10,793 bases of DNA from a virus: UHGV virus genome UHGV-0166775; one strand, 5' to 3'. Positions 2,234-8,515 of this stretch are shown piece by piece (within the stretch, counting starts at the first letter, position 1; the number at the start of each line of letters is the position of its first letter). The notes under the pieces are model-generated. The model made no database searches. It worked only from the letters and a program-made list of their open reading frames with translations, and was not told the origin of the DNA. A program made the translations under genes and the position numbers.

Positions 2234-2407
2234 CAGTATCCCCTTGTATATGATATGAGGGGCGTAGTCTGCATGAGTGCTTTTAATACTGCAATCTGGT
2301 CAGATGTCTTTATCGTATATTGATGATTATTGTCGGATAGTATGAGGTTTTCTCAACGCATGGAAATACCGGAAGGTGCGAAAATTACTAAGTAAGAAGA
2401 GTTACAT

Positions 2408-2432
2408 AAGCCCTTCATACAGTGAAGGGCTT
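2408..2432. repeat. Perfect 10-bp inverted repeat (stem-loop) aagcccttca-tacag-tgaagggctt
   Basis: Arms 2408-2417 and 2423-2432 are exact reverse complements with a 5-nt loop. No adjacent U-tract on either strand. Confidence 0.5.
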
Positions 2433-2508
2433 CTGTAATCTTAGAAATAAAAAACCGGTCATAGGGAGCTACACAGAACCGGTCGGCGAAGACCGCCAAT
2501 ACCACCCA

Positions 2509-2520
2509 TGCATCGATGCA
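2509..2520. repeat. 12-bp perfect palindrome tgcatcgatgca
   Basis: Self-complementary 12-mer. A partial copy atgcatcga recurs at 2564-2572. A second palindrome caatagc-t-gctattg lies at 2533-2547. Confidence 0.4.
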
Positions 2521-2843
2521 ACATACTAATGACAATAGCTGCTATTGATGTAAATGCAATGTTATGCATCGACGAAAATAAAAAACCGGCAGGGGAAATC
2601 CATTGAAGACTTGCCGGTGGCAAAAGTTGCCAATGCTTTTATAACCGTAGTCACAGAGTTACGAAGTGCAACACCGAATGCTGCTGGTATATGGATGAAT
2701 GGCGTTTCAATGATGTGCATCATTCAAATCACAAATAGTATTGATACTTATTCTCGGTTTTGCGGGTCCTTTCCGGTGATCCGGCAGGCTACGGGGCGGC
2801 GACCTCGCGGGTTTTCGCTATTTACGAGTTTTTTTGAGGTGAT

Positions 2844-2852
2844 GGTTGTTGT
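2844..2852 (+). repeat. cosB repeat 1 (GGTTGTTGT), candidate small-terminase binding element
   Basis: 9-bp core ggttgttgt, about 39 bp downstream of the cosN overhang. Confidence 0.4.
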
Positions 2853-2902
2853 TTTATCGTTTGATATATCTACTTGATAAGTAATAAGAAAGAAAAATAA
2901 AC

Positions 2903-2911
2903 ACAACAACC
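2903..2911 (-). repeat. cosB repeat 2 (GGTTGTTGT on minus strand; inverted)
   Basis: Plus-strand acaacaacc is the reverse complement of the core. Flanks resemble the other copies (ggttgttgtgtt on minus). Confidence 0.4.
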
Positions 2912-2968
2912 TGATGATCTTTCTTATACGAAAAAGCATGTAAAATCAGAGGGTTTTACAAAAAACGT

Positions 2969-2977
2969 GGTTGTTGT
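2969..2977 (+). repeat. cosB repeat 3 (GGTTGTTGT), immediately upstream of Nu1 start
   Basis: Third copy of the same 9-mer in direct orientation. Arrangement direct-inverted-direct between cosN and the Nu1 start is reminiscent of lambda R3/R2/R1. Confidence 0.4.
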
Positions 2978-3010
2978 ATTGCTTTTTTGCCGGTGGTTTA
3001 TGGAGGGGCT

Positions 3011-3488
3011 GTGGCCTTTTTATTGAATAAAAGCGACATGGCCTCCTCCATCGGTATCTCAGTACAGGCATTTGATAAATGGGGTGTTCCTCCTGTTGAG
3101 CGCCGGGGGAGAGAGGTTTTCTATGACGTTAAAACTGTACTGGAGATAGATCGCGAGCGACGTCAACAAAACCAGAAATCTTCAGGTGGTGAAAATGATC
3201 TTGAGGAAAGGCTACTTCAGGCCAGGGTTAACCTGACGGAAGAACAGGCTATTGCTCAGCGGTTAAAAAACCAGGTTGCAGAGCATAAGGTGATTGATAC
3301 AGCTTTCTCTATTTTTGCCCTGTCCCGGTTATCCGGAGAACTGGCATCTGTTTTGGACAGTATTCCGCTTTCGATGCAAAGAAAATTCCCTGAATTGACA
3401 GGCAGACAATTGGCTTATCTAAAAGAGCTGGTTGCGAAGGGGGCTAATAAATGCGTTGAGTCCGCTGAAAAAATGAAGGAATTTGCGG

Positions 3489-3517
<29 letters not shown>
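3011..3517 (+). CDS. nu1: Terminase small subunit (Nu1-like), divergent N-terminal wHTH domain
   Basis: ORF track 2987..3517 (TTG). I favour GTG 3011 because of the SD ggagg at 3002-3006; the start is uncertain. NKSDMASSIGISVQAFDKW aligns with lambda Nu1 NKKQLADIFGASIRTIQNW. The middle DTAFSIFALSRLSGELASVLDSIPLSMQRKFPEL is close to lambda ETAFCTFVLSRIAGEIASILDGLPLSVQRRFPEL. The C-terminal ~35 residues are unlike lambda. Confidence 0.8.
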
Positions 3518-7195
<3,678 letters not shown>

Positions 7196-7215
<20 letters not shown>

Positions 7216-8515
7216 TCTCCCGCATATTGCCAGCATGGCCTTTAATGAGCCGCTGATGCTTGAACCCGCCTATGCGCGGGTTTTCTTTTGTGCGCTAGCA
7301 GGCCAGCTTGGGATCAGCCGCCTGACAAATGCGGTGTCCGGTGACAGCCTGACTGCCCCGGAGACACCCGCGACGCTGGCGTTATCCGGTGATGATGACG
7401 GACCACGACAGGCCCGCAGTTATCAGGTCATGAACGGCATCGCCGTGCTGCCGGTGTCCGGCACGCTGGTCAGCCGGACGCGGGCGCTGCAGCCGTATTC
7501 GGGGATGACCGGTTACAACGGCATTATCGCCCGTCTGCAACAGGCTGCCAGCGATCCGATGGTGGACGGCATTCTGCTCGATATGGACACGCCCGGCGGG
7601 ATGGTGGCGGGGGCATTTGACTGCGCTGACATCATCGCCCGTGTGCGTGACATAAAACCGGTATGGGCGCTTGCCAACGACATGAACTGCAGTGCAGGTC
7701 AGTTGCTTGCCAGTGCCGCTTCCCGGCGTCTGGTCACGCAGACCGCCCGGACAGGCTCCATCGGCGTCATGATGGCTCACAGTAATTACGGTGCTGCGCT
7801 GGAGAAACAGGGCGTGGAAATCACGCTGATTTACAGCGGCAGCCATAAGGTGGATGGCAACCCCTACAGCCATCTTCCGGATGACGTCCGGGAAACACTG
7901 CAGTCCCGGATGGATGCAACCCGCCGGATGTTTGCGCAGAAAGTGTCGGCATATACCGGCCTGTCTGTGCAGGCTGTGCTGGATACCGAGGCTGCAGTGT
8001 ACAGCGGTCAGGAGGCCATTGATGCCGGACTGGCTGATGAACTTGTTAACAGTACCGATGCGATCACCGTCATGCGTGATGCACTGGATACACGTAAATC
8101 CCGTCTCTCAGGAGGGCGAATGACCAAAGAGACTCAAACAACAACTGTTTCAGCCACTGCTTCGCAGGCTGACGTTACTGACGTGGTGCCAGCGACGGAG
8201 GGCGAAAACGCCAGCGCTGCGCAGCCGGACGTGAACGCGCAGATCACCGCAGCGGTTGCGGCAGAAAACAGCCGCATTATGGGGATCCTCAACTGTGAGG
8301 AGGCTCACGGACGCGAAGAACAGGCATGCGTGCTGGCCGAAACCCCCGGTATGATCGTGGAAACGGCCCGCCGTATTCTGGCCGCAGCACCACAGAGTGC
8401 ACAGGCGCGCAGTGACACTGCGCTGGATCGTCTGATGCAGGGGGCACCGGCGCCGCTGGCTGCAGGTAACCCGGCATCTGATGCCGTTAACGATTTGCTG
8501 AACACACCAGTGTAA
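7196..8515 (+). CDS. C: Prohead protease / minor capsid protein gpC
   Basis: ORF track 7061..8515 is an upstream in-frame extension. The lambda-equivalent start is GTG 7196 (VTAELRNLPHIASMAFNEPLMLEP...), overlapping the 3' end of B by 20 nt exactly as in lambda. 439 aa. Confidence 0.9.
7910..8515 (+). CDS. nu3: Scaffolding protein Nu3 (in-frame internal start within C)
   Basis: ATG 7910 is in frame with C, 714 nt into it, the same offset as lambda Nu3 within C. Begins MDATRRMFAQKV. Confidence 0.75.
   Translation: MDATRRMFAQKVSAYTGLSVQAVLDTEAAVYSGQEAIDAGLADELVNSTDAITVMRDALDTRKSRLSGGRMTKETQTTTVSATASQADVTDVVPATEGENASAAQPDVNAQITAAVAAENSRIMGILNCEEAHGREEQACVLAETPGMIVETARRILAAAPQSAQARSDTALDRLMQGAPAPLAAGNPASDAVNDLLNTPV

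Follow-up and report, generated by a model that had tools for sequence, protein, structure and literature searches.

We found that the three 9-bp repeats preceding the terminase small subunit (TerS) gene of a lambdoid prophage of E. coli are very probably the R3, R2 and R1 TerS sites of a lambda-like cosB, which uses the recognition code of phage N15 and belongs to the type described for the Monarch group. The prophage DNA analysed here is a single stretch of 10,793 nucleotides, hereafter referred to as the window. Genes for a GH108 lysozyme, bor and a DUF1398 protein lie upstream of the cos region, and those for a Nu1-family TerS, a gpA-type TerL, gpW and a lambda-family portal lie downstream of it. 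The features of the region are as follows.

2764-2770, plus strand: cosQ (GGGTCCT), the packaging-termination subsite, near-invariant (6/7 columns) in 27 aligned cos regions.
2794-2805, plus strand: the 12-nt cohesive end of cosN, GGGCGGCGACCT, an exact match to lambda, the first base of which is cos bp 1.
2844-2854, plus strand: R3, the predicted TerS site closest to cosN, GGTTGTTGTtT, cos bp 51-61.
2867-2879, minus strand: candidate I1 (IHF) site, TATCAAGTAGATA, one mismatch to WATCAANNNNTTR, cos bp 74-86.
2901-2911, minus strand: R2, the inverted predicted TerS site, with an exact 9-mer; the minus strand reads GGTTGTTGTgT.
2969-2979, plus strand: R1, the third predicted TerS site, GGTTGTTGTaT, with an exact 9-mer; the TerS start codon is 34 bp downstream.
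3011-3517, plus strand: the TerS gene, 168 aa, GTG start; Pfam Phage_Nu1, E = 2e-21.
3489-5414, plus strand: the TerL gene, gpA-type ATPase and endonuclease; Pfam GpA_ATPase, E = 1e-50, and GpA_nuclease, E = 2e-74.

The GGGTCCT at 2764-2770 is identical to cosQ of lambda. This 7-bp subsite is strongly conserved (PMC4669245). The start of TerS was set at the GTG codon at 3011 by alignment with annotated 507-bp TerS homologues, which overruled the upstream TTG of the mechanical ORF; the relatives use ATG at this point. For TerL, the start at 3489 was adopted from RefSeq, as annotated for the identical stretch of L005; this E. coli prophage and the window have cosBs that are 100% identical. A cosB with 100% identity to that of the window is present in E. 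coli FDAARGOS_1058 (NZ_CP065970). Since TerS begins at the GTG (cos bp 218), the repeats fall between cosN and the Nu1-family gene, where the sequence-only reading had placed them. Two mechanical ORFs overlapping cos, at 2554-2877 (+) and 2748-2939 (-), are without a RefSeq counterpart in the identical region and are probably not genes. A terminator-like hairpin is present at 2616-2632, and the stretch from the DUF1398 gene to cosQ (2380-2740) bears no relation to the module with YbcW and YlcI/YnfO that occupies this place in the prophages with identical cosB.

The 9-mer GGTTGTTGT occurs in the window as exact copies at 2844-2852 (+), 2903-2911 (-) and 2969-2977 (+), corresponding to cos bp 51-59, 110-118 and 176-184, in agreement with the direct-inverted-direct arrangement reported earlier. 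With both strands counted, the base composition predicts 0.078 copies of the 9-mer per window, and about 4e-8 three-copy clusters within 134 bp. A genome-wide count, proposed in the sequence-only reading as a safeguard against chance, bore out its claim: no further exact copy was found on either strand of the 10.8-kb window, and a lone copy with one mismatch lies elsewhere in the window, at 8138. When 40 kb of the L005 prophage was searched, five copies were found, three of them in cosB and two elsewhere, and one of these two extra copies sits in a lambda-derived module that the window does not have. The density of copies with two mismatches in the window was not above that of shuffled sequences. 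Because such copies are as common as in the shuffles, the exact cluster is the sole unusual feature. The copies had also been described as having similar flanks; the similarity is only modest, and the conserved unit is GGTTGTTGTnT, which is the consensus of 78 distinct pooled instances, followed by a T-rich tail.

In 33 related loci, an exact copy of GGTTGTTGT is also present about 285 bp upstream of R3. We considered this copy as an R4-like fourth site and rejected it, as it falls in a YlcI/YnfO module that is 99% identical to the right end of lambda. Given that lambda uses other R sequences and that the window has unrelated sequence at this place, the fourth copy was judged coincidental. In L005 it occupies positions 19734-19742, about 235 bp left of cosN and within a YlcI/YnfO-family ORF, the module corresponding to lambda 48094-48324. 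An N15-specific terminase is known to package lambda DNA (PMC4669245), and in view of this the right-end copy of L005, coincidental as we judge it to be, is curious.

The sequence-only reading had stated that the recognition sequence differs from that of lambda and is paired with a divergent Nu1. Both points proved correct, and the different recognition sequence, judged by sequence comparison, is R3 of phage N15. At the left end of N15, which contains the sequence ATGAGGTTGTTGTTTAATC, the 9-mer occupies bp 50-58. In N15, R3 was delimited by block mutations to bp 48-59, GAGGTTGTTGTT, and scrambling of bp 48-53 and of bp 54-59 lowered the phage yield about 7-fold and about 100-fold, respectively (PMC4669245). 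Window 2842-2853, ATGGTTGTTGTT, equals N15 R3 at 10/12 positions, including the entire critical GTTGTT block, and this block is complete in three of three window copies. As measured from cosN, the first 9-mer of the window lies 1 bp farther out than that of N15 (bp 51-59 vs 50-58).

The protein side of the interaction shows the same relationship. The DNA-binding domain of TerS is predicted at about residues 1-48, encoded by 3011-3154. The recognition helix falls within residues 16-26 (ISVQAFDKWGV), which agree with N15 gp1 at 11/11 positions and with lambda Nu1 at 2/11. TerS is 75% identical to its N15 counterpart over residues 1-48 and 36% identical over residues 49-168. With the R sequence and an identical recognition helix both present, the window would share the packaging specificity of N15, and we predict that its cos would be cross-packaged by an N15-specific terminase. 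The homology of TerS to lambda Nu1 is backed by the Pfam match and by an alignment. A single-sequence AlphaFold model of TerS, which was poor (mean pLDDT 57.5), displayed a strand-helix-helix-hairpin-helix order in residues 4-57. A Foldseek search of this model against the PDB gave nothing at E <= 0.001, the matches being weak and of the MerR family only, and a phmmer search of the PDB with TerS gave no match. By tblastn of phage records, no phage TerS was found with more than 50% identity to that of the window. The protein is itself mosaic: residues 25-168 are 50% identical to Nu1 of the E. coli phages PhiR12_1 to PhiR12_5, the N-terminal residues of which do not align with the window TerS.

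In a complex cosB, three R sequences are present, R2 running opposite to the other two, and the R3-R2 interval includes an IHF site (PMC4669245, PMC9026076). In lambda, where R3 spans bp 50-65 (PMC9026076), the R cores likewise run +,-,+ at bp 53, 109 and 155. The window displays these complex-cosB features, namely the +,-,+ triple, the position of R3, and the location between cosN and a Nu1-type TerS gene with TerL next. The earlier suggestion that the repeats mimic the R3-I1-R2-R1 layout of lambda was thus upheld, the order being that of lambda and an IHF-like core standing at the place of I1. The motif itself is not that of lambda, as no copy of GGTTGTTGT was found in lambda bp 1-800.

The spacer between R3 and R2 is 50 bp long and contains 80% A+T, as compared with 47% for the window, so the AT-rich stretch noted in the sequence-only reading is real. 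There is, as that reading also remarked, no exact WATCAANNNNTTR in this spacer; instead, two minus-strand matches with one mismatch are found, at 2854-2866 and 2867-2879. For calibration, the R3-R2 spacer of lambda, which contains the established I1, was scanned identically. Its sole core with one mismatch or fewer occupies cos bp 79-91, likewise on the minus strand, and the second match of the window lies at bp 74-86. A core with one mismatch turns up in 22% of composition-matched shuffles of the spacer and is therefore not significant alone. The block TTGATAAGTAA at 2873-2883 shows a mean majority frequency of 0.94 in 24 relatives and is kept among the E. coli-type relatives. In the structure of IHF bound to H', the bend centre is near the first base of WATCAA. 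The corresponding bend centre in the window would presumably be at about 2879-2880, within 2-3 bp of position 2877.5, midway between R3 and R2. Given its position, strand and conservation and the analogy to lambda, 2867-2879 is a plausible, putative IHF site (I1). A conserved element that resembles an IHF core, ATCA(A/G)nnGGTTTT, is also present in the R2-R1 spacer at 2944-2956, with two mismatches in the window (AATCAGAGGGTTT) and one in the commoner subtype described below (TATCAAATGGTTT). This element could be a second, putative bending site.

To place the window among its relatives, loci were recruited with TerS peptide patterns, which gave 105 loci; species-representative genomes contributed 25 of these and viral contigs 80. 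The motif, with one mismatch or fewer, was present upstream of TerS in 82/82 distinct upstream regions, in hosts ranging from E. coli to Pseudomonas, Halomonas and Aeromonas; as the recognition helix was part of the recruiting peptides, lambda is the only contrast for the association of helix and motif. In every relative with a recognisable cosN, the motif begins at bp 50-51. We aligned 27 complex-type cos regions, of which 24 were retained after setting aside a Pluralibacter-type variant. The three sites stand out in the alignment as nearly invariant. In these 24 relatives, the invariant columns were 9/9 for R2, 8/9 for R1 and 7/9 for R3, and R3 likewise shows 7/9 invariant columns over all 27 relatives. 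Diverged members match the window at 100% in each of the three sites, whereas their spacers drop to 43-66% identity; taken separately, the ranges are 58-80% for the R3-R2 spacer and 43-57% for the R2-R1 spacer.

Several arrangements of the same site were observed. The complex layout occurs as two subtypes, that of the window with +,-,+ sites at -167/-108/-42 from the TerS start, and a commoner one with sites at -178/-119/-41. The R2-R1 spacer of the window (2912-2968) is 12 bp shorter than that of the commoner subtype (L002:1587-1655), the start-to-start distances being 66 and 78 bp. A step of 12 bp is close to one turn of the helix, so that R1 might retain its rotational phase. In the simple N15 layout, a single site at -39 to -62 is accompanied by an inverted copy about 200 bp away within the gene; this layout was found in Trabulsiella, Erwinia, Pseudomonas, Halomonas and Aeromonas, and the pattern of R3 plus rR2 is shared by N15 and at least 20 relatives. 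The cultured Pseudomonas phage F10 (L111) has GGTTGTTGT at 52-60 and an inverted copy at 249-257 within its TerS gene, which is the N15-type layout of R3 and rR2, and if its record begins at the cohesive end, the distance from cosN to R3 is kept too.

The Pluralibacter-type variant (L006 and L051-L055, comprising Pluralibacter gergoviae and viral contigs) carries R3 as AGTTGTTGT and R2 as GGTTGTTAT, at about -156 to -100 from the TerS start. It has neither a recognisable R1 nor the TTGATAA spacer block, and its TerS gene is intact. This cosB may represent a transitional form connecting the complex architecture with the simple one. A compact layout was seen in L014, with sites at -90/-32/+139 from the TerS start; here R3 and the inverted R2 are 58 bp apart and the third copy, a direct one, is within the TerS gene. 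The label of this locus, Chryseobacterium sp. 18061, is odd for an otherwise gamma-proteobacterial family and may reflect contamination. Five further loci (L003:1300-1345, L070, L071, L077 and L082) combine an N15-type complex cosB with a quite different cosN, GGGGGTCGGCAGACGCGCAAAAAC, and with cosQ retained. These prophages appear to provide further evidence for the independent assortment of cosN and cosB.

A second sign of such assortment is found in the window itself. Its likeness to lambda-like phages spans cosQ and cosN and ends near 2825, and a mosaic junction lies immediately to the right of cosN, at 2806-2843. To the left of the junction (2700-2824), an Stx2k phage is 96% identical and lambda-like phages are 90-95% identical; to the right, no sequenced phage matches except N15, weakly, within the TerS gene. 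In searches of 50,697 phage records by megablast and blastn, no close match to cosB and the 5' part of TerS was found, the exception being a match of 128 bp (about 74% identity) to N15 gene 1 and one Enterobacter phage, located where the N-terminal part of TerS is encoded. Judging from these alignments, cosQ and cosN seem to form one module, and cosB and the DNA-binding domain of TerS another, each reassorting on its own. In complete E. coli genomes, a region with at least 97.5% identity was present in 23/5,426, and the region was covered to at least 80% in 24. The sole annotation of these copies throughout is 'terminase small subunit'. About 0.5% of the complete E. coli genomes thus carry a member of this prophage family, relatives of which are spread over the gamma-proteobacteria. 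For annotation, the assignment of the three sites would fix the packaging origin, the ends of the virion chromosome (2794-2805) and the N15-type specificity.

On the basis of the sites observed, where they lie, how well they are conserved and the helix identical to that of N15, a mechanism may be proposed by homology to lambda and N15. Dimeric TerS would read R3 (2844) and the oppositely oriented R2 (2903) through its winged-helix domains. R3 and R2 would be set face to face in a hairpin by bending of the AT-rich spacer near 2867-2883, for which IHF is probably responsible, and R1 (2969) would raise the affinity. Bound TerS would then position TerL to introduce nicks 12 bp apart at cosN (2794-2805), and packaging would run rightward from there.

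The chief live alternative is that R3 alone works as the TerS site, and that R2 and R1 are dispensable remnants of a lambda-like ancestor. A single R3 suffices for the N15 terminase, with the remote rR2 being non-essential, and one upstream site is likewise enough for many relatives of N15 (PMC4669245). As the N15 terminase runs on one R3, R2 and R1 might be unneeded in the window, and the Pluralibacter-type variant has indeed lost R1 together with the TTGATAA block while its TerS gene is still intact. We nevertheless consider this alternative unlikely, as the strict conservation of R2 and R1 speaks against it. Both sites are kept in the 24 complex-type relatives, nearly without a variable column, while the flanking spacers drift down to 43-57%, a degree of preservation that would not be expected of neutral leftovers. 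Furthermore, R2 and R1 of lambda add measurably to fitness (PMC4669245, PMC9026076).

It is considerably less probable, to the point of being highly improbable, that the repeats are the target of some protein besides TerS, for instance a transcription regulator for which they would be the operator of the terminase operon, or a hijacker like Rpp, encoded by a phage-inducible chromosomal island (PICI). Operators typically are direct or inverted repeats close upstream of a gene start, and PICI Rpp proteins redirect lambda-like terminases to their own cosB (PMC9026076). However, no sigma-70-type promoter matches were found in 2400-3200, where 2.1 were expected by chance, and the motif follows the TerS recognition helix across genera and is, in N15, the genetically defined TerS site (PMC4669245). 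The window codes for a full phage head module and is not a PICI; moreover, the cosBs of PICIs are without repeated R sequences (PMC9026076). The least probable reading, that the repeats are functionless products of chance or of slippage in (GTT)n low-complexity sequence, could appeal to the short, trinucleotide-like character of GGTTGTTGT and to the exact copy in the right-end module of lambda, a phage that does not use the motif, but it is effectively refuted by the conservation data, that is, by two orientations, fixed distances to cosN and to the TerS start and cross-genus conservation despite spacer divergence, besides the expectation of only about 4e-8 such clusters per window.

Returning to the assignment of the repeats as R3, R2 and R1, we may ask what the range of arrangements signifies. 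Those counted comprise the complex layout (two subtypes, 12 bp apart), a form without R1 and the IHF block, a compact form, and the simple N15 form with rR2. It is possible, though on balance we doubt it, that one code (GGTTGTTGTnT, read by a helix QAFDKWGV) serving several distinct cosB architectures across gamma-proteobacteria amounts to a natural experiment on how the assembly initiating packaging is built up or simplified. It would be one if the 12-bp step and the distance of about 200 bp reflect limits of helical phase and looping on TerS assembly. If true, this would extend the proposal of Feiss that the N15 cosB derived from a Monarch-like one.

Compared with lambda, the window has an identical cosQ and 12-nt cohesive end, the same order and orientation of subsites, R3 near bp 50, and a Nu1-family TerS followed by a gpA-type TerL beyond cosB. 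The distance between the centres of R3 and R2 is 59 bp in the window and 56 bp in lambda. On the other hand, the R sequence of lambda is unrelated (core CGTTTCC...), and its helix shares only the 2/11 residues given above. The distance from R2 to R1 is 66 bp in the window vs 46 bp in lambda, and TerS starts at bp 218 vs bp 191.

With N15, the window has in common the R-site core, the recognition helix and a TerS N-terminal domain of 75% identity. In contrast, the upstream part of the N15 cosB consists of R3 alone and has no IHF site, whereas the window has R2 and R1 as well; N15 carries instead its non-essential, inverted rR2 about 200 bp away within gene 1. The N15 TerS gene begins at bp 89, as compared with bp 218 in the window, and the N15 cohesive end departs from that of lambda at bp 9 and 12, whereas that of the window is the same as lambda's. 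No copy of rR2 was found within the window TerS gene (3011-3517) at one mismatch or fewer. A simple cosB of the N15 type is excluded for the window by the upstream R2 and R1 together with this lack of rR2 in TerS.

The combination of N15 specificity with a complex cosB is already published as the Monarch group (Feiss et al. 2015, Virology 482:260 and PLoS One 10:e0141934, PMC4669245). Monarch prophages show a strong match to N15 R3, an N15-identical helix and three R sequences with no rR2; their R sites were deduced from sequence, and the IHF site between R3 and R2 was rated 'likely' (PMC4669245). The window shows the sequence features by which PMC4669245 defines the group, and an IHF site is 'likely' in both. 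The window would accordingly be assigned, on its sequence features, to the Monarch class of cosB; should it prove to be Monarch or among the four relatives already described, it would simply be known. The class, the recognition sequence and the likely mechanism were all published in 2015, so that the present finding is correct but ordinary. In the comparison with the Monarch group, which was made through its published description, we found no difference in kind: the two have in common N15-type R sites and helix, an inverted R2, a likely IHF site and a lambda-like cohesive end.
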